This document shows positions 3,340-28,413 of a DNA stretch of 64,000 nucleotides, in pieces (the stretch's first letter is position 1; each line of letters starts with the position of its first letter). The DNA is taken from positions 29,375-93,374 of the forward strand of contig DATCTK010000089.1 of the NCBI GenBank assembly GCA_036567985.1, written 5' to 3'. The notes under the pieces are model-generated. The model made no database searches. It was given only the letters and a program-made list of their open reading frames with translations, and was not told the origin of the DNA. Source of the stretch: Gammaproteobacteria bacterium (GTDB lineage: Bacteria > Pseudomonadota > Gammaproteobacteria > SZUA-229). A program made the translations under genes and the position numbers.

Positions 3340-3379
3340 AATTATTCCTCACATAAGATGTACAAATAGAAAAGTGGCA

Positions 3380-4833: not shown

Positions 4834-4844
4834 AGCAATTACTC

Positions 4845-6525: not shown

Positions 6526-6657
6526 TTACATACAAATAAAACGGGGCAACTTATATGTCGATCGTCCTCAACCTATACAATAGTTGAGCAACCCAACATT
6601 AACTCCATGGTTTATATCAGCAGTTATGAACCTGGTTACCAGTACGCATTGTTCACA

Positions 6658-9780: not shown

Positions 9781-11401
9781 GCTGATGCTCCTGCTGAGGA
9801 CTGTCGGGGCGCATACCATTAGGGTCGTTTTGCTCCGGCATTAACATCGCATCGTGGTTCATCCCATCACGCTGACTGTGATCCATTTCAGCCGGCATGG
9901 CATCGTCAGCTGACTCCTGATCCGGGATATGCACCTGGGTCAGCTGGTAATTTCCGTCACTGTCCCTGCTGATCTGCACATGCAGGCGCATTCCCGCTTT
10001 GAGTGCGTCCATGTCCACGCCCTCATCAACAGTAAAGTCCATGGTCATCGCCGGCCACTGCCAGTCTGCTATCGCCTCGTGCTCAAGCGTAACCATGCGA
10101 TGCCCCGGCATCAGCTCATTGATTTGCGCACCCACCCAGACTGAACGCGGGCCAGCGTCTGCTCCCGCAGCGCTCGATTTTTCGCCTTGCGAGCCACGCG
10201 GGGCCATACGCTTGAAGTCCGACGTCTTGCTGGACTCCGAGTCGATCAGGAACTGTGCAGAGGTCACAATGCGTTCCCCCTCGTTGAGGCCCGAGCGGAT
10301 TTCCACCTGATCCTCACCCACGCGCCCGATCTTTACCGCCAGCGATTTAAATTGACCATCACCCAGCGCCAGCACTACCCGCGACTGGCTGCCGGTACGA
10401 ATCAATGCTTCGCGTGGTATTAACAGCGCTTTATCCCCCGGCCGGGTTTCAATAATCATCTGCGCGAACATACCCGGCTTCAGAAAAGCATCCGGATTAT
10501 CAAAATACACACGAACCTGCGCGGTGCGGGTCTTCTCGTTTAACGACGGATAGATATAATTCACCTCTCCCTGCCATTCACGGCCGGGCAGATAATCCAG
10601 CCACATGCGCACCTTATCGCCTTCTCTGACCCGATCCACCTGACGCTCGAAGACTTCTCCGATCACCCAGATGTGTTCCAGCTGCCCAATGCTCATCATA
10701 TTCATGCCAGGCTTAACATACATGCCCTCACGAACCGTGAGATTGTCCACTACCCCCGAACGGGGTGCGGCAACGGTGATGGTCTGATTAACTTTGCGGG
10801 TTTTGCGTAAGCGCTCGATATCCGCCCGCGGTACTTGCAGCGACAACAGGCGTTCCACCGCCGCGCTAATTAGCAAAGCATTGCCGCGCTTCAAGGCCAA
10901 CAGTAATTCCTCCTGGGCATTGACCAGAGTGGGTGAATAGAGTGCGTACAACGGCTTCCCCTGCGTCACCGGATCACCCACCGATTTGACGTAGAGTTTT
11001 TCAATCCAGCCTTCCACCCTGGGATGCATGTGAGTCAGGCGGTCTTCATCGTACTGCACATAGCCTACGGTTTTGACATCAAGGTCGAGCCGTCCAGATT
11101 CCACCCTGGCGGTGCGAACACCGAGATTGTTGATGACCTCGGGCGAGATTTTAACGGTACCGACTTCATCATTCCCGGCACCGTCCGCATAAACCGGAAT
11201 CAGGTCCATGCCCATGGGCGATTTGCCGGGTTCATCGCGCTGGTAGTTGGGATCCATAGGTGCCACCCAGTAAAGCGGCTTGCGTTCACCGCCGTTTGCT
11301 GTCGCGCCCTGTTCATTTGAGCTGCTCAACAACCAGACAGCGGATGCGCCGAGCAGCGCACCAATAGCCACGCCCAGTATAGTTTTGCTCAATGTATTCA
11401 T
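9773..11401 (-). CDS. cusB: RND periplasmic adaptor (CusB/SilB-like) with a C-terminal CusF-like metallochaperone domain
   Basis: 542 aa. The MFP core runs up to ...QFLIDSESS. A ~150-aa extension follows with VWVGAQINELMPGHRMVTLEHEAIADWQWPAMTMDFTV (CusF-like H/M/M/W pattern) and a His/Met-rich tail. Confidence 0.85.
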   Translation of the reverse strand: MNTLSKTILGVAIGALLGASAVWLLSSSNEQGATANGGERKPLYWVAPMDPNYQRDEPGKSPMGMDLIPVYADGAGNDEVGTVKISPEVINNLGVRTARVESGRLDLDVKTVGYVQYDEDRLTHMHPRVEGWIEKLYVKSVGDPVTQGKPLYALYSPTLVNAQEELLLALKRGNALLISAAVERLLSLQVPRADIERLRKTRKVNQTITVAAPRSGVVDNLTVREGMYVKPGMNMMSIGQLEHIWVIGEVFERQVDRVREGDKVRMWLDYLPGREWQGEVNYIYPSLNEKTRTAQVRVYFDNPDAFLKPGMFAQMIIETRPGDKALLIPREALIRTGSQSRVVLALGDGQFKSLAVKIGRVGEDQVEIRSGLNEGERIVTSAQFLIDSESSKTSDFKRMAPRGSQGEKSSAAGADAGPRSVWVGAQINELMPGHRMVTLEHEAIADWQWPAMTMDFTVDEGVDMDALKAGMRLHVQISRDSDGNYQLTQVHIPDQESADDAMPAEMDHSQRDGMNHDAMLMPEQNDPNGMRPDSPQQEHQHD

Positions 11402-11413
11402 ACTTGAATTCCT

Positions 11414-12754
11414 TTAAAACGTTTCTACCGACTGCGCATCGTCAGGCGATACCTGGGCAAGCAGGTAATTGATCTGAGAAATAATTTTCTGTCGCTCCAC
11501 GGCGATATCAAGCGCATCAATTTTGGCATTCAACTCGGCAATACGCGCCCTCACAGCTTCAGCGAAGTCGCCGTCGTCATTGTTGTATGCTGTCAGTGAT
11601 GCGCTTGCCTGCTCCACCATCTGTGGCAGCAGCTGCTCGGTATAAAGTATCTGGCGCTCTTCCAGACGTTCCAGTTGTACACGCGCGGTTTCCAGTTCTG
11701 CCATCAACTGGCGGGCAAGCAACTGCTTTTCTGTTTTGATGACTTCGCTTCGGTTAACGGCGGCACTCACTTCCCTGTCCTGCCGGTTAGCGGTGAAAAC
11801 GGGCAAATCAAACGTCACACCAATAGAAAACAGATCGGCTCTGTCTCGCCCCAGTGGATCACTGTCGCGGTAGCCGTATTGAGCTGTCAGGCCCCATTCG
11901 GGTTTGTATTTCTGCTTCGCCAGATCAACGCCGGTTTCCGTTGCGTCGATACGCTGATCCAGTGCGCGCAAAGCGGGATGATGGCGGATTGATTCATATA
12001 AATTTTGCGTGCTGGCTGTTTCAGTGGATGGAGATGTCAACGATCTCACAGGAGAGATCGTTGGCAAAACTGGTGCGATGGTTGTTGTGGCAGGCGCTCC
12101 AATCCATTCAGACAGACGTTGCTGTGCAGACTGCTGTTTTTGCCTGAGCACTGTCAGGCGATCAGACAGCCGAGTCAGCTCGAGCTGCGCACGGATCACA
12201 TCATGCTGGCGCACTCGGCCCAGCGCCGATGAATAACTGGCTTCGGTGACGTCCACCAGTTGTTCGAAAAGGACACGATCCTGCTCGATCAGCCGGATAG
12301 TTTCCTGTGCCTTATAGGCTTCGAGCCACAACTGGGTGACCGTGGCGGTTACGCGGGCGCGACGGTTCATTCGCAGCAGAGGATGCTGCTCTGCAAGCTG
12401 CCGCTTTTGTTGCTGAGTGAGCGACAGGCTGTCACCCCGGGGGAACATCTGTGAGATACCTACCGATAACTGGGTCATGGCTTCCTGGTTGATATCGAAA
12501 GTGTCTACCGGAAAATTACCAGCCATCAGACTTATTCGTGGATCAGGTAAAGTCGCTGCAGCGCTCGCCTCATCAGTAAGCGCCTGCTGGGTATACTGGC
12601 TACCGCTAAGCCAGGGATCGGCATGCGTGGCTAAAGTGACTGCCTGTTCCAGAGTCAGGACTTCAGGAAGAGATTGTGCAACGGCCACTGCACTGCCCAT
12701 AGTAAGCAGCGGGGTGAGCGGCAGAATAAAAAACATTGTGATGAAAATTCTCAT
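11414..12754 (-). CDS. cusC: outer-membrane factor (TolC/CusC family) of the RND efflux system
   Basis: 446 aa. Signal peptide, OMF-type repeats. It overlaps the downstream cusB operon and the upstream copG by ATGA. Confidence 0.85.
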   Translation of the reverse strand: MRIFITMFFILPLTPLLTMGSAVAVAQSLPEVLTLEQAVTLATHADPWLSGSQYTQQALTDEASAAATLPDPRISLMAGNFPVDTFDINQEAMTQLSVGISQMFPRGDSLSLTQQQKRQLAEQHPLLRMNRRARVTATVTQLWLEAYKAQETIRLIEQDRVLFEQLVDVTEASYSSALGRVRQHDVIRAQLELTRLSDRLTVLRQKQQSAQQRLSEWIGAPATTTIAPVLPTISPVRSLTSPSTETASTQNLYESIRHHPALRALDQRIDATETGVDLAKQKYKPEWGLTAQYGYRDSDPLGRDRADLFSIGVTFDLPVFTANRQDREVSAAVNRSEVIKTEKQLLARQLMAELETARVQLERLEERQILYTEQLLPQMVEQASASLTAYNNDDGDFAEAVRARIAELNAKIDALDIAVERQKIISQINYLLAQVSPDDAQSVETF

Positions 12755-13287
12755 GGCTGCACTTCCTGTTGATTAAATGGCTGATGTTGCTGAGCCACGC
12801 TTTGCACACTAGCAAACACGTCTGTGCGTCCATCTTTTTTTATCAGCAAAACCTGGTAAGGCATAAACTTATCCTGGTACTCCATCCCCGGACTACCAAC
12901 GGGCATGGACGGCACTGTCAGCCCTATAGCGTCAGCAGGTGGACTAGCCAGAAACTGATGAATATAACGAGCAGGGATATGTCCCTCAAAGATATAACCT
13001 TGTGACGACACGGCTGTATGACAAGAACGCTGGTTATTCGCTATTTGATAACGATCCTTGATGGCGTCAAGATTTGCCGGATGCTCGGCACCTGCTTGTA
13101 AGCCCTCTGCTTCGATGTGATCTATCCATTTCTTACAACAGCCACAGGCTGGGGTCTTGTAGACCGTAAGCATTTCTGCATCACCGGCAGTTTGTTCAGA
13201 TGCCTGAAGTGTTTGCGATACACTGTTACAGGCTACAAGCAAGGGGATCAACGCTGGCACCAAACCCGTTAATTTAAACCGATGCAT
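12751..13287 (-). CDS. copG: DUF411 / CopG-family periplasmic copper-binding protein
   Basis: Trimmed to ATG at 13285-13287 (MHRFKLTGLVPALIPLLVAC..., preceded by a GGAGGT RBS). It has the CGCC motif (TPACGCCKKW) characteristic of DUF411. Confidence 0.75.
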   Translation of the reverse strand: MHRFKLTGLVPALIPLLVACNSVSQTLQASEQTAGDAEMLTVYKTPACGCCKKWIDHIEAEGLQAGAEHPANLDAIKDRYQIANNQRSCHTAVSSQGYIFEGHIPARYIHQFLASPPADAIGLTVPSMPVGSPGMEYQDKFMPYQVLLIKKDGRTDVFASVQSVAQQHQPFNQQEVQP

Positions 13288-13473
13288 GGTTACCTCCAGA
13301 AACATATAGTTTGCATGCTTGAGGGTTCGATAGCAGATTGACAGATTTATTTCTGACAACCACAGACCGGTGTTTAGTTGTCAGCATGCCTAACACACAA
13401 TGGTTGTAAGTGAACCGTTCAGGCGCATGGTTTATTCGACTACCCACCACAGTTTTGCCTTCAGTATCAGTCA

Positions 13474-14814
13474 TCAGTGCTGCTCATGAGTATTGCTCTC
13501 ATGCTCGACTTTTCTTGAGTGTAAAAATAACAGTTCACCAATCGCAATCAGCAGCATTGCAATAACAGCGACACCAATAACAAATGGATCGGAATTAAGC
13601 TTCACCCAGATAAACCCAGCCAGTACCAGCAAGTTTAAAATAATTGCCGTAAACGGAACCCAACGACTGGCCTGAACATCGTGTAGCAGGTAACGCAATA
13701 CGCCCCACTGTAATGCCACATCCATTATCAGATAGAAGATAATACCCAGCGCAGCGATGCGGGACAGGTCGAAAAACGCAGTAAGCAGCAGACCCAGCAC
13801 TACGGTATAAACTAGTGTGTGTTTCTGAACGCTGCCTGGCATACCAAAGTGTCTATGCGGCACCAGCTTCATTTCTGACAACATCGCCAGCATTCTGGAC
13901 ACTGCAAAAATACTGGCAATAATTCCCCCTGCAGTTGCCATCATGGCAATCGCCACTGTGAACCAGACGCCGTACTCGCCAAGCGCAGGTCGAGCAGCTG
14001 CCGCCAGTGAATAATCACGGGTCTCAATAATCTCACTAAGGGAAAGATTACCGGCGACGGTAAAGCCGACCAGCATGTAGATAACAACACAGGCAGCGAT
14101 TGAAATAACAATGGCCCGACCAACATTGCGACGCGGATCGATTATCTCAGATCCACTATTAGTAATAGTAGTAAAACCCTTGAATGCCAGAATACCAAGT
14201 GCTGTAGCACCGAGAAAGCTGCCGACGACACCACTGTTTTGCTGGGAGCTGAAATTAACTGTAACACCATCAATCAGACTGACACCCACCAGGCCAAAAA
14301 CCAGTATGCCGCCGATTTTCAATATACCAATGAAGCCCGCGACTCTCTGGATCGACCGATTACCTAGCAGATTTATAACGAACGCGGTCAGAATAAGCGC
14401 CACACCCAGCACCGGCACCATCAGGCCAGACTCATCACCGCCAAATAATTGCATGGTATAGGCACCGAATGTACGGGCTAGAAAACTTTGTGCAATCACC
14501 ATTGAGAAGTACATTAACAACGCATTGAATGCGGTAGGCAATCGATCACCATAAGCCTTGTAAAGATACATGCCTATGCCACCCGCAGATGGATAAGTGT
14601 TAGAAATTTTGATGTAGGAATAAGCGCTAAAAGACACAATTACAGCGGCAGCCAGAAAAGCCAGCGGAAACAACACGCCTGTCATTTCAGCCATCTGACC
14701 TGTCAGGGCAAAAATACCGGCGCCAATCATGACCCCGGTACCCAGCATAACTGTACCTGCCAGAGTCAGGCTTCCCTCTGCATAGCTCGTTTTATGATCT
14801 TGTTGTTGCGTCAT
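13474..14814 (-). CDS. APC-family amino acid permease
   Basis: 446 aa, about 12 TM segments, with the typical APC N-terminal glycine-rich TM1 (GAGIFALTG). Confidence 0.75.
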   Translation of the reverse strand: MTQQQDHKTSYAEGSLTLAGTVMLGTGVMIGAGIFALTGQMAEMTGVLFPLAFLAAAVIVSFSAYSYIKISNTYPSAGGIGMYLYKAYGDRLPTAFNALLMYFSMVIAQSFLARTFGAYTMQLFGGDESGLMVPVLGVALILTAFVINLLGNRSIQRVAGFIGILKIGGILVFGLVGVSLIDGVTVNFSSQQNSGVVGSFLGATALGILAFKGFTTITNSGSEIIDPRRNVGRAIVISIAACVVIYMLVGFTVAGNLSLSEIIETRDYSLAAAARPALGEYGVWFTVAIAMMATAGGIIASIFAVSRMLAMLSEMKLVPHRHFGMPGSVQKHTLVYTVVLGLLLTAFFDLSRIAALGIIFYLIMDVALQWGVLRYLLHDVQASRWVPFTAIILNLLVLAGFIWVKLNSDPFVIGVAVIAMLLIAIGELLFLHSRKVEHESNTHEQH

Positions 14815-14953
14815 GCTATTCCTTAATTTTCACTTCGATGCAGTGACGACATGAAGACGGATTAAGCAGCTAAAGGTTACTGGCACTCTCACCCAGGTAA
14901 CCCCGCTGTTGTTTTATGGTTATCTAACATAAGTTTTCTTCAATAACCGATCC

Positions 14954-15514
14954 TCAATGATGACCAGAATCACCCACATCGCGTACGCTCAGTATCTGGT
15001 ATTGCGGCGACGATAACTCTGGCAGACGCTGCAAGAAAGCCACCATATTCCAGATGCGCTCATCATCATGGCCCGCACCCCAGGCAGGCATACCTGACGC
15101 CTTGATACCGTGCTTGATAATCCAGAAATGCTTCCGCGCTCGCACGCTGACATCCTCCTGATGATTTTCGGTTTGGGTGAGGTCTGGTGGCTGTGGATAA
15201 AGTCCCAGGGTAAAGTCGCTCTGAGTCACGCCCGGTTTTAGATGGCAACCAACGCACATATCATTGTAATCTGCACCACCAGCCAACAACCGCTCGGCCG
15301 AAGCCAAATCGGTTGGCACCTGAATGTCGCTTGATGCGCGAGCAATGGATCGCTCACGCAAGGTTTCCAGCGCCCAATATGTCAGGTCGTTATGATGATC
15401 ATCGGCACCCATCGGATAAAAGCCTGAAAAGAGGAACCCCACACCAGTCACCACCGCCACGCTCGCTGCAGCGACAAGACACTTAAAACAGGACAGAATT
15501 TTAAAGAACGCCAT
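14954..15514 (-). CDS. c-type cytochrome (class I-like)
   Basis: 186 aa. N-terminal TM/signal segment and a CVGCH haem-binding motif. Confidence 0.65.
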   Translation of the reverse strand: MAFFKILSCFKCLVAAASVAVVTGVGFLFSGFYPMGADDHHNDLTYWALETLRERSIARASSDIQVPTDLASAERLLAGGADYNDMCVGCHLKPGVTQSDFTLGLYPQPPDLTQTENHQEDVSVRARKHFWIIKHGIKASGMPAWGAGHDDERIWNMVAFLQRLPELSSPQYQILSVRDVGDSGHH

Positions 15515-15546
15515 GTTATCTCCTGAGATATCGCGACCTGTTATTT

Positions 15547-15822
15547 TTAGTGCTGGTGCCTGGAGAGCTTTGTTGCAGCTGTTTTATCGTCATGCGAGTC
15601 CCCCTCGTTCTGACGCATGGCTTTCATACATTTTTTCATCATGGCCTGCGTCAGCGGATCATCCATGTTCATTTTTGAGTGATCCATATCTTCCATCATC
15701 GAACAGTCTGGCGCCGATGCCTGCGCCTCTTTCATGTGTTTGTCGGGGGAATGCGCGTGAGCTGACAGAGCAAGCATTAATGCCGGCAGAGCAACGAGAT
15801 AAGAGCGTATTTGTGGTTTCAT
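15547..15822 (-). CDS. small secreted His/Met-rich protein, a candidate periplasmic copper chaperone
   Basis: 91 aa. Signal peptide, then HAHSPDKHMKE...CSMMEDMDHSKMNMDD...MMKKCMKAM...SRHQH. RBS AGGA lies upstream. Confidence 0.5.
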   Translation of the reverse strand: MKPQIRSYLVALPALMLALSAHAHSPDKHMKEAQASAPDCSMMEDMDHSKMNMDDPLTQAMMKKCMKAMRQNEGDSHDDKTAATKLSRHQH

Positions 15823-15967
15823 GGTGTGTTTCCTAAAAGCTGTTCAAAGCATAAATAAATCAATTACAATCTGCGCCGTACCCCGGCAACAATGGCCGAA
15901 ACACGACCTGCTGCACTCAGTTATTGCACAGATTAACCTGCCCCCCCTGTCAGGCAGATGACCAATA

Positions 15968-15984
15968 CATTACAAAGATGTCAT
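15968..15984. promoter_or_regulatory. CusR/CopR-type copper-box-like palindrome in the divergent promoter between the cytochrome operon and cusRS
   Basis: CATTACAAAGATGTCAT. Its reverse complement ATGACATCTTTGTAATG matches the ATGACAAnnTTGTCAT CusR-box consensus at 12 of 14 positions. It lies ~70 bp upstream of cusR. An outer ATTACA...TGTAAT inverted repeat also spans 15969-15994. Confidence 0.45.
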
Positions 15985-16051
15985 CCTGGTGTAATCTTGC
16001 TGTAGGGAATGTCCCGCTAAACTGATACACACTGTAATAAGCGAGGCATCT

Positions 16052-16744
16052 ATGCGATTACTGCTGGTGGAAGACGAAATTAAAACTGGCGACTACTTGC
16101 GACAAGGTCTAACTGAAGCCGGCTTCCAGGCAACCCTGGTTAGAAATGGACTAGATGGTCACCACCTGGCAATGACCGAGTCATTCGATCTGATTGTGCT
16201 GGATGTCATGCTGCCCGACGTGGATGGCTGGCGCATAGTGCAGTCACTGAGGGAAGCCGAAAACCAGACACCCGTGTTGTTTCTGACCGCGCGTGACAGC
16301 GTGGATGATCGCGTCAAGGGGCTGGAGTTAGGAGCGGATGACTATCTGGTAAAGCCCTTTGCTTTTGCTGAGTTACTGGCGCGAGTGCGCACTCTGTTGC
16401 GTCGAGGATCGGCCCCACCTCTGACGGATCAGCTCAGAGTGGCCAACCTCACCCTGGATTTACCCAGGCATCAAGTGACACGCGCCGGCCGGAAAATCAG
16501 CCTCAGTCATAAGGAATTCTGCCTACTGGAACTGCTGGTGCGACGTCAGGGTGAAGTGTTGCCACGTTCACTGATCGCCTCTCAGGTGTGGGACATGAAT
16601 TTTGACTCCGATACCAACGTGATCGACGTCGCCATCCGTCGCCTACGCGCCAAAATTGACGACAACTTCAAACCCAGGCTGATCCATACGGTACGCGGCA
16701 TGGGTTACAAGCTCGACGCAGAAGCTGACAATGAAAACAACTGA
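16052..16744 (+). CDS. cusR: OmpR-family heavy-metal response regulator
   Basis: 230 aa. REC domain (LLVEDE..., [14 protein letters not shown]), then a winged-helix output domain. It pairs with the downstream kinase. Confidence 0.88.
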
Positions 16745-18137
16745 GCGTCACCCACTTTCACTGACCGCCAGGGTGATGATTTTTGTCGCACTGGCCATCG
16801 GTATCAGCATGGTGCTGATTGGCCATCTGGTATTGAATGCTGTTGAGCGCCATTTCACCGAACAGGACGCGGACGAGCTGAACGTGATTAACCAGGCTGT
16901 GGTGGAGACCTTGCAGAGTATGGATGACCCACTGCAGCAACCAGAAGCTCTGTCTAATGCGGTCTCGGGACACCACGGCGTTTATTTTCAGGTATTGAAC
17001 AACCGTGACCGGGTTATCTTCAGTACGCCAGGCGCAGACTTCGCACAATCCGCCGCAGGATTATCCGCGGTTCAGAAAATTCACGCTGGAAACGTGAATA
17101 TCTGGCACACAGATAGAACAACCTACCGGGGCGTCGTCACACAGTTTGTCAGTGGCGATCAGGAATACCGAATTACCACAGCCATCGACATGAACTTTCA
17201 CCTGCATTTTCTGCAGGAATTTCGCCGCAGCCTGTGGCTTATTATGATACTCACTGGCGGCGTGACTCTGCTGGCAGCATGGTTCGGCGTGCATCAGGGA
17301 CACGCACCTTTACGAGGTCTATCGGACAAACTGCGTAATATTCAGGCAGATCGTCTACATGTGCGGCTTGACCTCCGCAGCCTGCCCCTGGAGCTACAGG
17401 ATATGGCCACAGCGTTTAATCAGATGATCGGCCGACTGGAAGACAGCTTCACGCGGCTGTCACATTTTTCCGCTGACATTGCCCACGAACTGCGAACCCC
17501 ACTGACGAATCTCATCACCCAGACCCAGGTTGCATTGGGTAAAGCAAGAACACTGGACGAGTACCGTGAGCTCCTCTACTCCAATCTGGAGGAACAGGAG
17601 CGTCTGGCCAAGATGGTCAATGATATGCTCTGGCTGGCCAAGAACGACCATGGCCTTATCAAACCGGAGCTGGTAGCCCTGGATCTGTCTAGTGAGCTTA
17701 AGAAACTGTTCGAGTTTTTTGAAGCGCTAGTAGCGGAAAAGCATATTACCCTGTCCCTGGAAGGACATGCGCCAGCGGTAAGCGGTGATCGCGCGATGAT
17801 GCGTCGGGCGATCTCAAACCTGCTGTCAAATGCCATCCGTCACACCCCGGCAGGTGAGCAGATACAGGTGCGCCTAAATCTAACAAGCAATAATATGGTG
17901 TCGCTGAGCGTGGCCAACCCGGGTGCCGAAATACCCGCAGAGCAGCTGAAACACATATTTGACCGCTTTTACCGTGCAGACCCGTCAAGAACACGCCAGA
18001 GTGAGGGTGCTGGACTCGGCTTAGCGATTGTTCGCTCCATTGTTGAGGCACACGGTGGACGTGTCGATGCAAGATCGAATCGACACATCACCACATTCAC
18101 AATCACGCTGCCCAGCTCAAAAAGTGAAAGTAACTGA
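16731..18137 (+). CDS. cusS: heavy-metal sensor histidine kinase
   Basis: 468 aa. Two TM segments flank a periplasmic domain, then HAMP, an H-box ([12 protein letters not shown]) and a HATPase domain. It overlaps cusR by 14 nt. Confidence 0.88.
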
Positions 18138-18301
18138 ATATTAAATTTTGTTCTTGTTAGGCTGACCACATTATCACCACCCGTTATTCTCTGTAAGAAT
18201 TGTGCAATGTGCAGCCAATCGCAAATAGCACTTATACATCACTTTAAAGACAAGCCACGTAATAAGTTATTGTTTATATTGTAAATATTTGATTATTTTT
18301 T

Positions 18302-18328
18302 GAGGTTCAAGTCCTCTTCTCGGCACCA
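18302..18328 (+). other. tRNA 3'-end fragment (T-arm, acceptor and CCA), a putative genomic-island attachment-site remnant
   Basis: GAGGTTCAAGTCCTCTTCTCGGCACCA reads as a T-loop GGTTCAAGTCC plus acceptor 3' strand and CCA. The upstream sequence is AT-rich and cannot form the rest of a tRNA. It sits in a 940-bp non-coding gap between the copper island and the TA/helicase module. Confidence 0.5.
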
Positions 18329-19049
18329 TCACTTCTTAACTCACTGATTCCATTAAAAACAGTAGCTTACGACACTCTTTTGGGTACATTCGTGGGATAC
18401 ACCAGCCGTTTTTTAGAATCACCCTTTGTGAGTAAAAAATCCAGTTTAGCGTTTCATGGCAACTCATCGATTCACGGCATAACGAGTACTTCGCCCTCCA
18501 CCGGGCAATTGCCTGAGACAGCATTTACTCAGCAGATCAGCCCGGTCACGTGTGGTCGTTGCCTTAGTCACATCAGCAATGCTCTGGTATTTTCAGACAT
18601 TAATCCCTGGTAGCAAGGCATCTCCTTCAGCTACCAGCAGTCAATTGAGTACTTTTATCTGGCGCGCGCTTAAAACAGTCTGACCAGGCTATTGCCAGAA
18701 ATCTTTTTATCGATTACACGTTGTATCGACTCTGCCCTCGCCGAATCGCTTTCGTTAATACGGGTAAAAACCCGGCAAGCCGCTGTGTACAGCGAATCGT
18801 TACAGACTCCCGTCTGGGCTTATGTTCATTGAGCTGATAATTAAAATCAGGCTAACTGGATGCTTGCCATAGCTACATAACAGCCTGCTAACGGTTGATT
18901 TGGGCGATTGGACGATTAACAGCTTTTAATCGACTCATAAGCAAATAAGCGAGCTCTATAAAACCTGTCATTAATTTTATAATCACCAAAAGAGTCAAAT
19001 ATGATCTGAGGCTCAATTATATTGATTCTCCTGTATATTTTAGTTGAAA

Positions 19050-19068
19050 TAGTCCCATTATGGGACTA
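19050..19068. promoter_or_regulatory. perfect 19-bp palindrome, a candidate HigA operator just upstream of higB
   Basis: TAGTCCCAT-T-ATGGGACTA ends 12 bp before the higB ATG. Confidence 0.5.
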
Positions 19069-19079
19069 TCATCAACCTT

Positions 19080-19385
19080 ATGAGAATCATCGCCTTATCA
19101 ACACTGAAGGCTTTTTGGGAAAGACATCCAGAGTATATGGATGCTAAAGAACCAACTTTAGCCTGGTACCGCCATACATTAGCTGCCGACTGGAGTGCAC
19201 CTGCTGATGTTAAACAGGACTTCAAAAATGCCAGCATCCTTAAAGATGGGCGTGTAGTTTTCAATATTGCGGGGAATAAATATCGTCTGGTCGTGTGGAT
19301 CAACTATGCCTATCGAGTGACTTACATCCGGTTCATCGGTACCCATGCGCAATATGAAAAATTCGTCAGGAACGAATTTTCATGA
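19080..19385 (+). CDS. higB: type II toxin-antitoxin system toxin, HigB family (RelE/ParE superfamily)
   Basis: 101 aa. NIAGNKYRLVVWINYAYRVTYIRFIGTHAQYEKF resembles E. coli HigB (…NVGGNELRVVAMVFF…CYIREVMTHKEYD). The toxin gene comes first, as in higBA. Confidence 0.75.
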   Translation: MRIIALSTLKAFWERHPEYMDAKEPTLAWYRHTLAADWSAPADVKQDFKNASILKDGRVVFNIAGNKYRLVVWINYAYRVTYIRFIGTHAQYEKFVRNEFS

Positions 19386-19468
19386 GCAGAGCGAGCCCGA
19401 AGGGAGAGGCTCATGGACGAGCCGAATACAAAATTGATGTACAAACTATTTAATTGCCGGAGGAAACT

Positions 19469-19837
19469 ATGGACATCAAACCAATTAAAACTGATGCTGA
19501 CTACCGAGCGGCATTAAAAGACATTGAAGGTCTGATGACAGCAGGTGTTGACACACCTGAAGGGGAAAAGCTCGACGTTATGGCCACCCTCATTGAGGCC
19601 TATGAAGCGAAGCATTTTCCAATGGATTTACCCGACCCTGTTGAAGCCATCAAATTTGAGATGGAGCGTAAAGGCTTAACAGTAAAAGACCTTGAGCCCA
19701 TGATTGGTAAAAGCAATCGTGTGTATGAGATTCTCAACCATAAGCGCTCACTGACGCTGAAAATGATCTGGAAGCTACATAAAGGATTGGGCATTCCTGC
19801 GGAGTCGTTGATTAAACCACCGCAAGCGCATGCTTAA
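19469..19837 (+). CDS. higA: HigA antitoxin, an XRE-type HTH protein
   Basis: Start trimmed to the ATG preceded by a GGAGGAAACT RBS. C-terminal HTH (LTVKDLEPMIGKSNRVYEILNHKRSLTLKMIWKLHKGLGIP). Confidence 0.75.
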   Translation: MDIKPIKTDADYRAALKDIEGLMTAGVDTPEGEKLDVMATLIEAYEAKHFPMDLPDPVEAIKFEMERKGLTVKDLEPMIGKSNRVYEILNHKRSLTLKMIWKLHKGLGIPAESLIKPPQAHA

Positions 19838-22199
19838 ACAAAAGCTAAATAGTAAACACTTTAAAAGCATTCGCGAAATAGAGACGCGGCTCGCAGAACT
19901 TGAAGACGAGAAGAAACAACTTTTAGACCTTAGAAAGCAACTGCAAGAACCCTCGGCAATTGCACCCGAATCGAGTTCATATTCACCGGAACAAAAGATA
20001 GCCATATTCAGAAGCCTGTTTCGCGGACGCACCGACATTTTTGCTAGTCGCTGGGTAAATAAACAAGGTCGTAGTGGTTACTCTGTCGCCTGCAATAATG
20101 AGTGGATACAGGGAATCTGCCACAAGCCCCGCGTTAAATGTCAGGATTGTAATCATCGACAATTCACGGAACTTACGGATCAGACAATTTACCGACACTT
20201 AGCTGGGCATCAGGTAGTTGGACTCTACCCATTAATGCACGACAACACATGCTTCTTGCTTGCTACAGATTTTGATAAGGGGCAGTGGCAGGAAGAAGTA
20301 AAAGCAATGTCAACAGCCTGCCTGGCCTTTGAAATACCACATACAATTGAGATTTCACGCTCAGGCAATGGTGCTCACCTTTGGATATTTTTCAAAGAAA
20401 AAGTACCTGCCAAAGAGGCCAGACTACTGGGTTTCGGTCTGCTCGACAAAACCATGGAAATCTATCCAAACCTGTCTTTTGAGTCCTATGATCGCCTATT
20501 CCCAAATCAGGATATTTTGCCCGAAGGTGGGTTTGGCAATTTAATCGCACTGCCTCTCCAACGAGAAGCGAGACTTGCAGGCAATAGCACTTTCGTTGAT
20601 AGCAACCTCAATGTCATTAAAGATCAGTGGCAGCACCTTTCTCAAATTGAACCTCTATCTCATAAAAACCTGAGCAAACTGCTCACCCAGGTTTCACCAA
20701 CCTCAGAACTTTTCGATGAACAAAAAGTTATCGAGATAAGGCCACCCTGGGAAATAACCGCCAGGGAAAAACCGCTCGAACTGAACAACCTTCCTGAAAA
20801 AGTCACAATAACACTCGCAAATCATATTTATTTTGATTTAAGCGAAATCCCGAGCACCTTGGCAGTAAGATTACGACGTCTCGCCAGCTTTTCCAACCCC
20901 GTTTTCTTTAAAACCCAGGCACTGCGTTTTTCAACACATGGTATTCCACGATTTATTTCCTGTGCTCGAATAGAGCAAGGCTACCTGTCAGTACCTCGAG
21001 GTTGCTTAGATGATGCGCTTAAGCTATTGAGCGAAAATCAGATAGAAGTCCTATTAGACGACAAGCGAGAGTTCGGAGCCAAACTCAAAAACATTAAATC
21101 GCAAGTTAAACTCAGAAAGAACCAACAAGCCGCTGTGAAAGCCATGAGCAAACACGACTCAGGTATCCTTCACGCCCCTACAGCGTTTGGAAAAACTGTC
21201 ACAGCCATTGGCATGATTACCAGGCGAAAAACCAATACATTGATTCTGGTTCACAGTAGACAATTGCTTGATCAATGGAAAGAGCGATTAAAAACATTTC
21301 TTCCAGGCATCGACATCGGAGTCATTGGTGGAGGCAAGAAAAAGCCAACTGGTATAATCGACATAGCTACTTATCAAAGCCTCATCAATTAAAATGAAAA
21401 CTCAGTATCCGGACTTGTGCAAGACTATGGTCATGTAATCGTTGATGAGTGCCACCACGTTTCAGCTCCTCGCTTTGAAATGGTATTGAACGAAGTCAGG
21501 GCCAGATACGTACTTGGCCTGACCGCAACACCGGAAAGGCAGGATGGACACCAGAAAATTATATTTATGGCGACTGGCCCCATTCGGTACAAAGTAAAAA
21601 ACACCCAAAAAGAAAATTTCGAACAACAGGTCATTGTTCATCAACTTTATGATATACCTCCAGGACGGTTAGTCCACTCAGATGAACGTCCAAAAATATC
21701 AGATGCTTATCAATGGATCATGGAGAGTGATGCACGCACAGGTCGAATTATTGACGATGTCCTCGTTTGTGTTCAGCAATCCAGACATCCCATAGTGCTG
21801 ACTGAACGCAGAGAACATGCCGAAACGATTAACACAATTCTACTGGAGAAAGGTATAGACTCAGTCGTCCTTAAAGGTGCTATGCGTGCTGGTGAACGAA
21901 AAGCTGTTGAGGATAAATTACCTACTGCTCAAGTTGTGGTTGCTACGGGTAAGTATGTAGGCGAGGGATTTGATCTACCAAGGTTAGACACCTTGTTCCT
22001 GGCCATGCCCATTGCCTGGAAAGGATCATTAGCGCAATATGCAGGCCGTATACACCGGGAATCTGATGGCAAAGAATGCGTGACCATACATGATTATGTT
22101 GACTGCTCGTTACCCATACTGCAGCGCATGTTCAACAAGCGTGAGAAAATCTATAAAGCGATGGGTTACCAGATTGATTTCAATGAACAGGCATCCTGA
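19830..22199 (+). pseudogene. primase-polymerase (AEP-like) N-terminal domain fused to an SF2 DEAD/DEAH-type helicase. The reading frame is interrupted by one in-frame TAA at 21390-21392.
   Basis: The N-terminal half has a Cys cluster (CNNEW...CHKPRVKCQDCNH), a DxD (LLATDFDKG), SGNGAHLWIFF (AEP motif II-like) and LPLQ. The helicase part has motif I (APTAFGKT), Ia, II (DECHH) and III (TATPER), plus a C-terminal RecA-like domain (QYAGRIHR). The ORFs 19830-21392 and 21417-22199 are in the same frame and are separated only by TAA. The ATG overlaps the higA stop by 8 nt. Confidence 0.7.
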
Positions 22200-22540
22200 A
22201 GCGGCCAAAAGTTAAACGAGCTTCTGCTAACTTGTGATAATTTAGACTCCGAACCTCCTGCGTAAGCATTAGCCTGCACGAGCATTTCAATGCACTAGCT
22301 GGGGCAGAATAGATTGCCTGTAAGCTGAAACCACGACCTTCCCACCACCAATAACAAGCCACCCATTATTTTGACTGACTTTGTTTGGTGACAATGGTGC
22401 AGCTACCCCCCTTAATGCTTCAAAATAATTCTCCTGGTACGAATTGAAACAATTAGCACTTAATATATCACTTGAAACACGAACCATGTAACACGAATCA
22501 ATTAAAATATGCCTGATTTTTGAAAGGCCCTGGCAAACAA

Positions 22541-25258
22541 TTAAGGTGCTGATGACTCCACCAGGTCTTTAATACACCTCAGCACATCGTCCGAAGTAAA
22601 TGGCTTATGTAACAGGTTTTCATACAGCTCATCCTGCGCATACTCGGCCTTGATTGTGTCGCTATAACCACTGACCAGCTGGATTTTAATCTGCGGGAAT
22701 TGCTGTTGCACCTGCCGAGCCAGTTCGTGGCCATCCATTTCCGGCATAATGATGTCACTGAACAGAATATCCACCGGCTGTGTTTCCAGTAATTCAAGCG
22801 CATCCCGGCCATTGGCTGCAGTATGTACCTGGTAGCCGCTTTGCGTAAGAATTTCCGCGGTCATTGCACGCAGTGCTGGTTCGTCATCAACCACCAGGAT
22901 GGATTCGTTTCCACGATAACGATTCTCACCTCCTCGATCCGATGCGATTGCATCAGGATTACCGGCAAGCTGTCGCGGCAGGTACAATGCAATTCGGGTG
23001 CCTTCCCCGGGTGTTGAGTCCACGGTTATAAAACCACCATTGGTTTGCACCAGGCCATACACCTGGCTCAAGCCCAGTCCCGCACCGAAATTGCCTTTGG
23101 AGGTAAAGAACGGATCAAAAATCTTTTCCTGCACGTCCTTGCTCATACCAATGCCGGTATCGGTAAAGCTGATCATCACATATTCACCCGATTCAGCCTG
23201 GGCATATTCACGACTGCCCCTGGACACCGAGACATTTCCTGTTGCAATGGTCAGCTCGCCCCTGTTTTCTATGGCATGCATGGCGTTGATACTGATATTA
23301 ACGATTGCATCTTCCAGGTCCCCTGCATTAATCCACACCGGCCAGAGATCTTCCTGTAACTGGTATTGCAGGTTAATGCGTACGGTGAGTACTTTTTCCA
23401 GCATATCCTGTCGATCAAGTAACAACACATTGATATTCAGGGTTTCGTTTTCAGTTTGCTGTGGCCGTGAGAATGACAGCAGTTTTCGTGTCAGGCTGGC
23501 GCCACGTTCACCGGCATGATGAATTTCATTGATATATTTCTGTAATTTATCATCCTCTGCCAGCGAATCCTGAATCAGCTCGCTGTAACCGAGAATAACC
23601 CCCAGCATATTATTAAAGTCGTGTGCGATGCCACCGGTGAGTTTACCCAGTGCATCCATTTTCTGTGTGCGTCGCAGGGTTTCTTCATGCTGTTTGCGTT
23701 CGGTAATATCAATTGAAATACCGCAAACCGCATAGATATTGCCCGCCTCATCCGTTAACGGGAACCTGGTGCTGGCGTAGGTATGCAGGCCATCTTCCTG
23801 CAGTGCAGTTTCTTCCACTTGCAGCACACTGCCACTTGAGAAAACCGCAAGATCATTTTTACGCGCTTCCTCTGCAACGTCTCGCGCAAACACGTCATAT
23901 AAATTTTTTCCGATGATATCCTCAGGCTGCATATTAAATGAACGCAGAAGCTGCTGGTTAACATAGCTGAAATCCCCCTGACGGTCCTTTACATAAATAA
24001 CGGCCGGTGAGTTATCCATAATCGAGCGCAACAGTCGTTCACTTTGTGCTGCACTCTGTCGTAAACGGTATTTTTCCGTAACATCATTGAATATCAGCAC
24101 CATACCGAGAATTTCATTATCCTGATTACGAATTGGCGCGGCGGAATCCGATATATGATACTGCGCACCATCACGGGAAATCAGTGTGGTGTTATTGCTC
24201 AGAAAAACTGTCCTGCCGGTTTTAATCACCTTATCAATCGGGTTCTCAATTATCTGTTGCGTTTCCGCATTGATAATTTTAAAAATATCGGTAATCGGTT
24301 TACCTGTCGCCTCATGCAGCGGCCAGCCGGTGATTGTTTGCGCTACCGGGTTCATGCGTGTTACCCGCCCGCTGGCATCAGTGGCAATCACCGCGTCACC
24401 GATACTGTCCAGGGTTACCCGCAGGTCTTCTTCCTGCTGCGCCAGTTCGCGATGCTGATCCCGTAGCTGTTCGGTGAGATCGGTCAGGTTACGGTTCTGG
24501 TTCTGTAAACGCGCAGCCATGGTGTCAAAACCGCTTGATATTTTACTGAACTCATCTGCCCCTGGCAGCTGTATACGCGCATCGTAATTACCGTTGGAAA
24601 ATGCATTAATACCCTTAATAATCGACTTGATACGGTTACGCATACTGAAATACAGCAACAGGAAACCCGCCAGCAGAATGCCGAAGTGAATCAATGTGAT
24701 CTGGATAATTTCCTGTTGCTGCCGGTAGTAGAGTTCGCTTAATGTATGCTGCAAATTGTAGCTGGAAAACAGATAGGCATTGACGTAATCACCTTTACCC
24801 GGCGCGTGGGTGACATTATCCAGTGGATAAAGCCCAATAATCATCTCAGCATCATGGTTAATATCTATCGACCCCAGATAACCCGCACCATCCCTCTCGA
24901 CTATCAACTGCTGCACGTCTGGCAAACCATTGACTGACACATCACGGTATTCGATTGAAGATGAATACTGAATCACGCCATGTTCATCGATAATGGCGAT
25001 CAGTTCCATGGTGGGGTCACTGCTGATTCGTGAAACTTCGCGGTGGATGGCATTGAAATCACCACGCAAATTAAAATCATTTACCGTGCCCTGCAATTGC
25101 ACCATGCGTTGCCTTACCCGGCTGAGCTCGGATTTTTTTACGTCCTCGATCTGTTTCTGAAACACCATGGCATAGGTGTAATAGGACACACTGGCACTGG
25201 TTATCAGGGCGATAACCATAAACCAGATAAGTATGGGAAAGCGTGAGAAAAAATTCAT
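22541..25258 (-). CDS. hybrid sensor histidine kinase / response regulator, with a periplasmic sensor domain, HAMP, two PAS domains, HisKA-HATPase and a C-terminal REC
   Basis: 905 aa. Two TM segments bracket a ~150-aa periplasmic region. PAS signatures (DSIGDAVIATDASGRVTRMNPVAQTITGW; DNSPAVIYVKDRQGDFSYVN). H-box HDFNNMLGVILGY. G-boxes. REC (ILVVDDEPA...DIIMPEMDG). Confidence 0.85.
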   Translation of the reverse strand: MNFFSRFPILIWFMVIALITSASVSYYTYAMVFQKQIEDVKKSELSRVRQRMVQLQGTVNDFNLRGDFNAIHREVSRISSDPTMELIAIIDEHGVIQYSSSIEYRDVSVNGLPDVQQLIVERDGAGYLGSIDINHDAEMIIGLYPLDNVTHAPGKGDYVNAYLFSSYNLQHTLSELYYRQQQEIIQITLIHFGILLAGFLLLYFSMRNRIKSIIKGINAFSNGNYDARIQLPGADEFSKISSGFDTMAARLQNQNRNLTDLTEQLRDQHRELAQQEEDLRVTLDSIGDAVIATDASGRVTRMNPVAQTITGWPLHEATGKPITDIFKIINAETQQIIENPIDKVIKTGRTVFLSNNTTLISRDGAQYHISDSAAPIRNQDNEILGMVLIFNDVTEKYRLRQSAAQSERLLRSIMDNSPAVIYVKDRQGDFSYVNQQLLRSFNMQPEDIIGKNLYDVFARDVAEEARKNDLAVFSSGSVLQVEETALQEDGLHTYASTRFPLTDEAGNIYAVCGISIDITERKQHEETLRRTQKMDALGKLTGGIAHDFNNMLGVILGYSELIQDSLAEDDKLQKYINEIHHAGERGASLTRKLLSFSRPQQTENETLNINVLLLDRQDMLEKVLTVRINLQYQLQEDLWPVWINAGDLEDAIVNISINAMHAIENRGELTIATGNVSVSRGSREYAQAESGEYVMISFTDTGIGMSKDVQEKIFDPFFTSKGNFGAGLGLSQVYGLVQTNGGFITVDSTPGEGTRIALYLPRQLAGNPDAIASDRGGENRYRGNESILVVDDEPALRAMTAEILTQSGYQVHTAANGRDALELLETQPVDILFSDIIMPEMDGHELARQVQQQFPQIKIQLVSGYSDTIKAEYAQDELYENLLHKPFTSDDVLRCIKDLVESSAP

Positions 25259-26208
25259 TCAGGTATATAACGACTGGTAAGACGGCCCTGCAATGAAGGT
25301 GTTTTTTTAATCAGCTCGAGTTCATTAAGGATCTCGATCATGCGCTGTTGCTGTTGCAACAACGGACTGTTCTGACTATCGAGCAGGCGGCGGTTGTCAT
25401 CTTTAGTAGAAAACTTCAGCAGTTTGAGACTGGCAATATAGTCCTCCACCGTGGTGTCAAAGCGTTTGAGTGAATAAGCCGCGCTCTTCTGCGGATTTTC
25501 TGCCTGATTGTCCAGCGCCCTGAACCAGGCCTCAACCAGCTGCTTCACCGTATCCGGGTATTGCTCAGAATAACTTCTGCGCACCACCAGCACATCGATA
25601 ATTTCATCAGGGATAAGGGTTGAGTTAAAAATTTCCTGCTTGCCAGATTTCACCAGCTGGGTACGATACGGGTCGAATGATACCGCCGCAACAATCTTGC
25701 CACTGGCAAAACTGCTGGCCTGCTCCATCGCATTGGTGGAAACAATCTGGATATCATCTACCTTCATATCATGCAGTTCGAGTGCACGCTTTAATACAAA
25801 CATGCCCACCGCGCTGCTCTCCACCGCCACCGGTTTGCCTCGAAGGTCTTCAACTCGCTCAATACCCGGGTTGGCCAGAATCACATCACCACCGTATGAC
25901 ATATCCATAATCAGGATAACATCCAGGTCAGTACCCTCGGAGAGCAGTTGCAGGGTTTCATCGAGAGTAAAGGCGGCGGCGTGCAGATTGTGATTTTTAA
26001 ACGCCAGTATGGTATCGGTGTTCGACAGGTAGTCGATAATCTTGATCGGCTGCCCCTGATAGTAGCCCAGCTTATCCGCCAGGTATAAGGGCTCATAACC
26101 GGGCCATAATACGGCGCCCACGCGCAGGGTTTCCTGCGGACGATCCACACAGGCTGAAAGCAGTAATCCAAAGCTGAGTAACACGAAACCAAAACGCTTA
26201 AACATCAT
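25255..26208 (-). CDS. periplasmic substrate-binding lipoprotein (NMT1/SsuA-TauA-like SBP fold). It is co-operonic with the hybrid kinase and probably acts as its sensory partner.
   Basis: 317 aa. Lipoprotein signal (LLSAC). Two-lobe SBP-like pattern. A 4-nt overlap with the downstream kinase gene. Confidence 0.6.
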   Translation of the reverse strand: MMFKRFGFVLLSFGLLLSACVDRPQETLRVGAVLWPGYEPLYLADKLGYYQGQPIKIIDYLSNTDTILAFKNHNLHAAAFTLDETLQLLSEGTDLDVILIMDMSYGGDVILANPGIERVEDLRGKPVAVESSAVGMFVLKRALELHDMKVDDIQIVSTNAMEQASSFASGKIVAAVSFDPYRTQLVKSGKQEIFNSTLIPDEIIDVLVVRRSYSEQYPDTVKQLVEAWFRALDNQAENPQKSAAYSLKRFDTTVEDYIASLKLLKFSTKDDNRRLLDSQNSPLLQQQQRMIEILNELELIKKTPSLQGRLTSRYIPE

Positions 26209-26583
26209 TATTTAATGGGCAATGTCACGTTCATCACCCTCAATCCTGTCCACCACTGGGGCAAATATGCCACACAAACTGTAAGGAAACAATTCGGGTA
26301 GCCTTGTCCACACTGCCACGAGCCGCATTAGCGCCTGGTAATATTTATATTGTAAGGCGTTTATTATTATGTCATTAATAAATAGACTGATCGACAGGAC
26401 TTATCAAGCTAAATCAGGCACTTACAGTATAAAACATCTGGATTAACGTTCTTAAAGGTAAGCACACAATAAAACAGCACGCCTCAGACGCCGTAAGCTA
26501 ATCTCGCAAGCCCGTGCCATAATAAACTGATAACCCGGCATAATTGCAGGAATTCACTCACAGCGGTAGATCAGTCAACAGCC

Positions 26584-27852
26584 ATGTTTCGCATCAGCCT
26601 GTCCATTTTTTCACTGCTCTTCAGCACCGGCATTCTGCTGCTGGGCATCAGCCTGCAGAGCACCCTGCTGGGCTTGCGCGCGGGGCTGGAAAACTATTCC
26701 ATGACGGTTACCGGCATTGTCATGTCATCCTACTTTGTCGGCTTTGCCCTGGGCAGTTATTACAATCCAAATATCATTCGGCGTTTCGGCCATATACGCA
26801 CCTATGCCGCACTTGCTGCCCTCGCTTCAGCCGCGGCAATTGCCCATGCACTCTACACCGAGCCCTGGTTCTGGACACTTCTGCGCATTATCTCCGGCTT
26901 CTGCGTGGTGGGTATGTATATGATTATTGAAAGCTGGCTCAACTCACTGGCCAGCAACGCCATGCGCGGTAAGTTTTTTGGCCTGTATATGATTATTACC
27001 CTGCTTGCGATGGCCATAGGGCAACATCTGCTGCGACTGGGTGAAGTGATCAGCTTCGAACTGTTTGCCATCACCACCATATTGATCACACTTGCACTGG
27101 TGCCGGTGGTATTAACCCGTTTACGCGAACCGGAGATCAGCCAGCCGAAACAGTTCGGCCTGTTGCAGCTGTATACCATCTCGCCACTGGGGGTAGTGGG
27201 CACCCTGTCGGCGGGACTGATTACCGGTTCCTTCTGGGGCATGGGCGCGGTTTATGCGGCGCAGATCGGGCTAGATGCGAACGGTGTTGCCTGGCTGATG
27301 AGCGCGATTATTCTCGGTGGCGCACTTTTGCAATGGCCGCTGGGCCTGCTCTCCGACATGATTGACCGGCGAACGGTAATACAGGTTTGTGCATTCAGCG
27401 GAGTCGGGCTGGCCCTGCTCAACAGTATTATCAGTATCGAGTCCAGCCTGCTGTTTTACACCGTGTCATTTCTGTTCGGGGGATTTGTATTTATTTTTTA
27501 CGGCCTGTGCGCCGCCCATGTGCATGACCAGATAGATGCGGATCACAGCCTTGAAGCGGCGCAGGGTTTATTGCAGCTGTATGGCATAGGCGCGATTATT
27601 GGCCCCTTGCTGACCGCGCTGTCTTTCAACGCCTTCGGTTCACGTGGCATGCTGTTTTTATTTGCGCTGATTATGTTCGGTCTCGGCCTGTTTACCCTGC
27701 TGCGTATGCATCAGGCCAGTGCACCGGCGCCGGAAGAACAGACCAGCTTTGTGCCTTTAGCCAGAACTTCGCCGGTGGCGCTTGAAATGAGCCCGATTAA
27801 TGAAACGAGTGAAACGGATGCGACTGAAGAAGACTCGGCCGATAAAAAATAA
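26584..27852 (+). CDS. MFS transporter
   Basis: 422 aa. 12 predicted TM helices and an MFS motif-A-like region between TM2 and TM3. Confidence 0.75.
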   Translation: MFRISLSIFSLLFSTGILLLGISLQSTLLGLRAGLENYSMTVTGIVMSSYFVGFALGSYYNPNIIRRFGHIRTYAALAALASAAAIAHALYTEPWFWTLLRIISGFCVVGMYMIIESWLNSLASNAMRGKFFGLYMIITLLAMAIGQHLLRLGEVISFELFAITTILITLALVPVVLTRLREPEISQPKQFGLLQLYTISPLGVVGTLSAGLITGSFWGMGAVYAAQIGLDANGVAWLMSAIILGGALLQWPLGLLSDMIDRRTVIQVCAFSGVGLALLNSIISIESSLLFYTVSFLFGGFVFIFYGLCAAHVHDQIDADHSLEAAQGLLQLYGIGAIIGPLLTALSFNAFGSRGMLFLFALIMFGLGLFTLLRMHQASAPAPEEQTSFVPLARTSPVALEMSPINETSETDATEEDSADKK

Positions 27853-28090
27853 GCTGACACAGTTCATTCAGCCGTCTGGCGCGGAGTTATACGGGTATCA
27901 GGTGGATCCGCTACGCTTGATCCACCCTACGGGGATGCTGTTTTTTACATAACAGAATCAAACGAAATAGAACCTGCAATTGTCGTAATTAAAGATAATG
28001 TAATTTGAAAAGTTGTTTCTCGTATGGTGGATCAAGCGAAGCGGATCCACCGTTGCCCCACAATATCGCATTTATTAAAGCGTGGTGACT

Positions 28091-28378: not shown

Positions 28379-28413
28379 AGAACCTTCAAAAATTCCGCGG
28401 TTAAACTTTGTAG

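Follow-up and report, generated by a model that had tools for sequence, protein, structure and literature searches.

The 64,000-nucleotide stretch of DNA analysed here (the window), whose source is an uncultured marine gammaproteobacterium, probably a sulfur-oxidising one, begins within a copper block. The part of the block that lies in the window (1–18301) encodes a SHOCT protein, a Cu P-type ATPase (517–2958, minus strand), small ORFs, a CusA/B/C-like RND system (6658–12754, minus strand), DUF411, permease and cytochrome c proteins, and, on the plus strand, CusR (16052–16744) and CusS (16731–18137). Between the stop codon of cusS (18137) and the start of higB (19080) there is a gap in which the longest ORF has 77 aa and the GC content is 0.411, against 0.51 on both sides, and which contains the tRNA-like fragment that is the subject of this work. 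The rest of the gap (18329–19079) is a non-coding, fast-diverging spacer that differs by up to 8.8% from L123, one of the metagenome contigs (L121–L126) that share the gene order of the window's chromosomal part and about 95–98% nucleotide identity with it. The original prediction of a non-coding gap of low GC content therefore stands, and its reading of the gap as decayed mobile DNA is not supported, a six-frame Pfam scan of 18329–19079, which also covered decayed integrases, having returned nothing. L123 and L124 carry 71 extra bp after window position 18473, flanked by a TTCACGGC direct repeat, a difference that fits a slippage deletion in the window lineage. Ten base pairs upstream of higB there is a perfect palindrome, ATAGTCCCAT-T-ATGGGACTAT (19049–19069), which is kept in L123 and L124 and is, by prediction, probably the operator of HigA.

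To the right of the gap, higB (19080–19385, plus strand; HigB_toxin Pfam, 8e-30) is followed by a higA-like HTH gene (19454–19837, plus strand), whose HTH_3 match (2e-4) lies below Pfam's cut-off; a gene for a HigB (RelE-fold) toxin and then one for an HTH antitoxin is the layout of HigB/HigA type II toxin–antitoxin systems. Next comes an AEP-TOTE primase/SF2 helicase gene (19830–22199, plus strand; AEP-TOTE at 1e-98, ResIII and Helicase_C), in which one frame of 789 codons is broken by an in-frame TAA at 21390–21392, and which thereby departs from the intact frame of a TOTE AEP–helicase. The segment corresponding to window 20327–22490 is deleted in L123–L126, and this deletion and the nonsense TAA of the window represent two independent inactivations of the gene. 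A PAS histidine kinase gene (HK; protein HEY9202521.1; 22541–25258, minus strand) follows, and far to the right lie hisZ and purA. Just downstream of purA we also observed a pair of inverted repeats of about 85 bp (61413–61496 and 61505–61589), a third copy of which is found near mutL in L121 (664–748); these repeats resemble a REP or MITE element.

The fragment itself, GAGGTTCAAGTCCTCTTCTCGGCACCA (18302–18328, plus strand), is a bodiless copy of nt 61–87 of tRNA-Leu(CAG), and occurs only once in the window even when three mismatches are allowed. When mapped on the cloverleaf of the 87-nt tRNA, whose T-arm corresponds to nt 60–76, it begins with the second base of the 5' T-stem strand and runs through to CCA; it thus lacks the first G of the T-arm and includes the rest of that arm, the 3' strand of the acceptor stem and the discriminator A. 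The same 27 nt form the tRNA 3' end in contigs L127, L130, L132 and L134, and the T just past the fragment, at 18329, is common to all intact tRNA loci, which extends the match to 28 nt. Two parts of the fragment have different distributions: the T-arm 16-mer GAGGTTCAAGTCCTCT (18302–18317, plus strand; tRNA nt 61–76) is common to the right end of the copper block in a second genomic context, called context B below, while TCTCGGCACCA (18318–18328, plus strand), made up of the 3' acceptor strand with the discriminator and CCA, belongs to the tRNA-Leu locus only and is missing in context B. There is no tRNA body upstream of the fragment, as had been stated from the letters of the sequence, since ARAGORN and Rfam identified no tRNA gene anywhere in the 64-kb window; moreover, a permissive Rfam scan of 18000–19200 gave no tRNA signal, and when the full tRNA was aligned locally with the window, only noise was obtained outside the fragment. 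The 25-nt core of the fragment has exact matches at no fewer than 120 loci in a collection with one genome per species, nearly all of the matches listed being labelled Gammaproteobacteria or Pseudomonadota. Because an intact tRNA-Leu(CAG) ends in this core at 24 of the 24 loci tested, the tRNA of origin is a Leu and not a Ser one, which settles in favor of the former a T-loop that had been described as Leu/Ser-like. The chance that such a sequence merely resembles a tRNA 3' end is negligible, given its match to the lineage's own tRNA-Leu(CAG) at 27 of 27 positions, the expectation of zero matches in shuffled sequence, and its place at the syntenic position of tRNA-Leu(CAG). The fragment is thus a genuine displaced tRNA-Leu(CAG) 3' end in the position of an island junction, and probably has no present function, except that it may still be a substrate for recombination.

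The usual surroundings of this tRNA help to place the fragment. Among the 120 matches listed, rnr is the divergent upstream neighbor of tRNA-Leu(CAG) in 96, and purA converges on it in at least 37 loci, usually 80–250 bp and sometimes 1–5.6 kb away. In the window, purA (61769–63061, minus strand), together with hisZ (hisZ–purA, 61769–63985, minus strand), has the same relative orientation to the fragment but is 43.4 kb distant. In the genus of the window, the interval between tRNA-Leu(CAG) and purA measures about 39–43 kb (window 18329–61768) and includes HK, a second cusAB pair (34648–39233), glycogen genes and pentose-phosphate genes; it may be an old accretion at the same hotspot, or the product of a rearrangement. 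The most informative relative is L127, which belongs to a sister lineage; its HK has 85% protein identity and about 83% DNA identity to that of the window. The gene order of L127 is recJ, rlmB, rnr, intact tRNA-Leu(CAG), 113 bp, HK, SBP and MFS, with neither HigBA nor the copper cluster at the tRNA site. The last 27 nt of the L127 tRNA equal the fragment, and the preceding base is a G, versus a T in the window. Since an intact tRNA sits there between rnr and the same HK, which has SBP and MFS as its neighbors as in the window, the L127 site is the empty site, and the fragment has the same orientation relative to HK as this tRNA. A search of the window for the 113-bp spacer between tRNA and HK gave only a noise-level result, so the ancestral spacer is not recognisable in it. 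The ancestral order would have been rlmB–rnr, then tRNA-Leu(CAG), then HK and onward to purA.

Contigs with an intact tRNA beside rnr were also found close to the window's own population. L134 and L135 contain rnr and the intact tRNA, stop 1 nt past its CCA, and originate from two samples in which window-type contigs are present too (JGI 3300027828 and ERZ27250982). They and L130, L132 and L133 were taken as conspecific with the window on indirect grounds, namely shared samples and RNase R identity, the RNase R of L134 and L135 (P0241) being identical to that of L132 and L133 and rounding to 100% identity with that of L130 (P0245); accordingly, the contigs that keep the intact tRNA beside rnr are probably of the window's species. 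This bears on whether the fragment could be what is left of the original tRNA-Leu(CAG), its 5' part having been destroyed by the insertion, another copy of the gene lying elsewhere and nothing having been duplicated. The lack of a tRNA body upstream of the fragment agrees with such a history, which we nevertheless regard as very unlikely, because contigs from the same samples keep the tRNA, with its full 3' end, at its ancestral place by rnr, its upstream neighbor in the great majority of the matches listed. The 3' end was therefore duplicated and not destroyed, and a duplication of these 27 nt is what integrative recombination yields.

What follows the intact tRNA varies between contigs. Past it, L130 carries genes for an AAA ATPase, an S8 peptidase, ParDE and ATP sulfurylase (cargo at L130 4900–9400), while L132 and L133 carry a tyrosine integrase of 523 aa and then a conflict-system island. 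For this integrase, matches to PHROG_1 (3e-20) and DUF6538 (1.6e-13) were obtained, and its sequence has the motifs GARPSE and FRHTF and a C-terminal Tyr; the cargo of L132/L133 1–9700 consists of the integrase, paired ankyrin-repeat genes and DUF2326/MC7/CTD11 genes. Consequently, both things that had been proposed for a search, a tRNA with the identical 3' end and an integrase next to it, were obtained, the former in same-sample contigs (L134 and L135) and the latter beside the tRNA of L132 and L133. As three unrelated sequences come after ...GGCACCAT in L127, L130 and L132, the site is a strain-variable integration hotspot. The intact tRNA is physically linked to the copper block on none of the contigs found. 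Some assemblies break near the junction: L124 ends at the equivalent of window position 18195, 123 nt into sequence common to the two contexts of the copper block (A, that of the window, and B), and L134 and L135 end exactly 1 nt past the CCA of the tRNA. Such breaks would be expected if more than one variant of the junction is present within a community, and are consistent with this. After the copper block and the 27-mer, L224 (8693–8722) has TTA and then stops; this TTA agrees with the sequence of L130 past the tRNA (CCATTACTAAC) and not with the CCATCACTTC of the window, a hint, of 2–3 nt only, of a third flank on the right.

Bodiless copies of the tRNA-Leu(CAG) 3' end were observed in other gammaproteobacterial lineages as well (L018, L029, L046, L090, L114 and L115, from Woeseiaceae, Granulosicoccaceae and related MAGs). 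They measure 25–28 nt, have the same T-stem start and lie 97–212 nt downstream of the intact tRNA; three of them recur in L115 (5826–6268), spaced about 210 bp apart, and at most of the loci the repeat also takes in the 12 nt past CCA, exactly or nearly. These copies look like mini-elements or island scars.

The original prediction placed the island on the low-coordinate side of the fragment, and two lines of evidence uphold this. The first is the orientation of the fragment, which matches that of the tRNA in L127. The second is divergence from the conspecific contig L123, which rises 13-fold at the fragment, from 28 differences in 7,874 positions (0.36%) over 10455–18328 to 92 in 1,998 (4.6%) over 18329–20326 and 279 in 5,902 (4.7%) over 22491–28392, the differences nearest to the fragment being at 18026 on the left and 18351 on the right. 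This step indicates that it is the copper side that consists of recently shared or exchanged DNA. Composition does not separate the two sides, contrary to what the proposed check of GC content and codon usage might have revealed for 1–18137: GC is 0.510 on the copper side versus 0.511 on the core side, and GC3 0.575 versus 0.583. By the yardsticks used for genomic islands, the copper block is therefore variable in presence, being missing from the orthologous site in L127 and exchanged between contexts, but is not atypical in composition, a property confined to the HigBA and AEP/helicase islet (GC 0.44, GC3 0.42). One might suppose from these values, and from the lack of this 4.2-kb right-hand stretch in L127, that the island is the one on the right and that the copper cluster is ordinary chromosome. 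However, the orientation of the fragment sets the tRNA-proximal, or island, side on the left, the divergence step marks that side as the recently shared one, the copper cluster too is missing from the orthologous site in L127, and the right-hand islet is not bounded by a second repeat, a search for repeats around it, including tRNA-like ones, having given none above noise; all of this makes a right-hand island highly improbable. HigBA and the AEP/helicase pseudogene, missing from L127 and partly deleted in L123–L126, form instead a separate, decaying, low-GC islet between the fragment and HK, as had been suspected for the toxin–antitoxin and helicase module.

The copper block could be followed for some distance beyond the window. 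In the 6.6 kb to the left, the metal cluster continues with genes for SHOCT, cytochrome c, a beta-propeller protein, P-II, an Na/H exchanger and others, and neither a tRNA, an integrase, a transposase nor a second att-like repeat was found there or in window 1–18301 (about 25 kb in all). The intact tRNA and integrase that had been expected beyond the window start are thus not encountered in this interval. A comparison of L128 with L141 and L129 showed a divergence of no more than 0.4% down to window position −3312 and dense differences from −3900, which places the left end of the low-divergence block within the conserved Pyr_redox_2 gene, some 3.6 kb before the window start, and gives the block a length of about 22 kb. 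No tRNA-like sequence above noise is present at this switch point or elsewhere in L128 or L141, and the edge looks like an endpoint of homologous recombination. The true left end of the insertion was not reached through members of the rnr or ATP-sulfurylase clusters, neither gene being on the 154,760-bp contig, nor is the HK gene on the long rnr or sat contigs. In a metagenome scan with the leftmost visible protein, the contig of L123 stopped 0.7 kb past that gene; L136, from the same scan, was considered as an empty site and set aside, being a mosaic relative that lacks the genes from the ATPase to cusS and hence not a clean one.

Within the window's population the copper block is both conserved and mosaic. 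Seven contigs compared over window 6054–18317 are at least 98.5% identical to each other, and an identical CusR is encoded on 22 contigs. Over 6–13 kb, the window equals the context-B contig L217 (0–1 differences per kb), and over 14–16 kb it differs from L217 by 2.4–3.6% and equals the context-A contig L218. No transposon or IS features were seen in the block, and a megablast search with window 16000–22500 (the cusRS end, the gap and the islet), sensitive to DNA similarity of roughly 85% or higher, found no match among PLSDB plasmids or E. coli genomes. Exact-protein look-ups returned no record for CusS, HigB, HigA, TrhA or SBP. The block spreads mainly within one local lineage.

The comparison of the two contexts locates the crossover. 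In context A (the window, L218, L220 and L224), cusS is followed by ...TTTTTT GAGGTTCAAGTCCTCT TCTCGGCACCA T..., HigBA and HK, and in context B (L216, L217, L219, L221–L223 and L225) the sequence is the same up to GAGGTTCAAGTCCTCT and then continues with CCGCAATTAAAG..., His_Phos_1, SulP and Usp. The contexts are identical as far as window position 18317 and unrelated beyond it, that is, they split precisely where the T-stem gives way to the acceptor stem. The flanks of the two contexts diverge by 5–13%, against an identity of at least 98.5% in the block itself. Since this second context has only the first 16 nt of the fragment, the crossover must have occurred inside the fragment, within the 16-mer. 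The contig SRR7642892_795, which had appeared to be colinear with the window past cusS, was rejected as such, as it belongs to context B. Divergence shows no step at the 16-mer in that context, in which the common block continues through His_Phos_1, and in L216 and L217 divergence jumps to 11–13% only about 1.2 kb further right. Context A looks like a B-type block that was cut short at the T-arm and there fused to the tRNA-Leu 3' end with its downstream flank. It had been anticipated that a copper cluster at another locus with no such repeat would speak against an island junction, and context B presents part of this picture, the other locus being real and the repeat being reduced to its first 16 nt. 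Given that the 16-mer is internal in context B, and that the sequence following it there could not regenerate the tRNA, B is not a proper attP, which leaves room for a crossover at the 16-nt identity made by something other than an integrase.

We consider that the most plausible account, although far from a certain one, begins with a joint made by an integrase at tRNA-Leu(CAG) and continues with the spread of the block by homologous recombination. DNA ending with the copper block would have been joined to the HK side by a crossover in the T-arm of the tRNA, which would duplicate the tRNA 3' end, so that the intact tRNA stays by rnr and the bodiless copy stays by the old downstream flank. The enzyme would be a tRNA-Leu-specific tyrosine integrase acting on the T-arm, T-stem crossovers being a known class, and the block would then spread among strains by homologous recombination; the circle junction of the excised element is predicted to read ...GATTATTTTTTGAGGTTCAAGTCCTCTTCTCGGCACCAT and then the left end of the island. 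Accordingly, the 27-mer is rather likely to be an attR-type recombination scar at a tRNA-Leu(CAG) integration hotspot. The duplicated 3' end, its orientation, the empty site, the hotspot and the T-arm crossover all fit the standard model of a tDNA island, while the lack of an integrase in about 25 kb, a left edge of the recombination type, and a context B that does not regenerate the tRNA fit a self-contained island poorly. It is on account of these misfits that our preference for an integrase-made joint followed by homologous spread is a restrained one, and that short-homology (homology-facilitated illegitimate) recombination with no integrase is retained as a possible, if unlikely, origin. 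According to the latter, a context-B-type block would have been imported by homologous recombination, with the left crossover in Pyr_redox_2 and the right joint made through the 16-nt identity between the T-arm-like block end and a tRNA-Leu gene, or an older fragment, by HK. A left switch point inside a conserved gene with no att-like repeat, a mosaic block that recombines freely, a 16-mer internal to the shared block in context B, and no visible integrase are all what such a process would produce. Against it, the exact 16-nt identity stops at the boundary of T-stem and acceptor stem and spans the whole inverted repeat of the integrase type, as predicted for a site-specific event, scars in other lineages begin at the same position, and an integrase lies at the same tRNA in contigs of the same population. 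A simple inversion, a deletion or an unequal crossover between the 16-mer and the tRNA was rejected by reasoning, as these predict either the wrong orientation of the junction or a broken tRNA, and the tRNA is intact in the same samples. More doubtful than short-homology recombination is the idea that the copper block has in its terminal 16-mer a portable pseudo-att site, through which this block, with no recombinase of its own, would be captured in trans by resident tRNA-Leu-specific integrases; if it were so, the block could alternate between a 'home' by His_Phos_1 and SulP and the tRNA-Leu site, as a minimal, one-sided form of integrase hitch-hiking.

Several known systems are comparable with the integrase-made joint that we favor. 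In E. coli, pathogenicity islands associated with leuX and carrying P4-type integrases use the 3' end of a tRNA-Leu as att and have a short direct repeat at the far end. The junction in the window would likewise use a tRNA-Leu 3' end as its att site, whereas the isoacceptor is CAG here and CAA in leuX, and the host group and the cargo, copper efflux, are also different. The CIMEs of Streptococcus thermophilus lack an integrase, are flanked by att sites and are moved in cis or in trans. Like them, the copper block has no recombinase of its own, ends in a T-arm 16-mer that a resident integrase could recognise, and shares its tRNA hotspot with integrase-bearing islands; with no att-like site at its left end, it falls outside the definition of a CIME, which includes two att sites. 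Copper and silver resistance islands of Enterobacteria bear cus/sil/pco-like modules on plasmids and chromosomes. The copper block resembles these in having a P-type ATPase, a CusCBA-type RND pump and a CusRS two-component system, and differs in that 16000–22500 has no similarity at megablast level to PLSDB or E. coli sequences and in that no transposon or IS features were seen.

The closest comparison is with tDNA-integrated islands as defined by Islander (Hudson, Lau and Williams 2015, PMC4383910; Williams 2002, cited therein). In the standard model, the tRNA gene is split on integration and made whole again by the island, whose far end is then marked by the displaced fragment; a 3' fragment was reported for 3760 of 3919 tDNA islands, and an attP site in the T-stem region for 1836 (PMC4383910). 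Like those islands, the window has a displaced 3' fragment oriented as the tRNA and starting in the T-stem, the crossover class of the T-stem region, the relative L127 provides the empty site, and a tyrosine integrase is found at the same tRNA in the related contigs L132 and L133. Unlike them, it shows no integrase in the visible 25 kb of its island side, the integrase of L132 and L133 belonging to a different cargo, no contig found links the end with the regenerated tRNA to the window's copper block, and the cargo is compositionally native. Measured by the Islander definition, the fragment's identity, its orientation and flank relative to the empty site and the canonical sublocation of the crossover are all as in a tDNA island, and an integrase is missing from the visible part of the island. 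Taken as a whole, the original interpretation of the locus as an island junction is thus partly supported.

The locus is, overall, an ordinary tDNA island junction with an interesting detail, a scar of a familiar kind, and the finding leaves unchanged what is known about how such islands form. What it adds is the precise map of one junction, at the tRNA-Leu(CAG) hotspot of a marine gammaproteobacterial lineage that is uncultured, where the comparison of two contexts localises the crossover within 16 nt, a resolution that is uncommon for metagenome data. With a complete genome, the fragment can be used as a marker that delimits the island, and on its left side lies a copper-efflux block that moves through the population much faster than the chromosome diverges.
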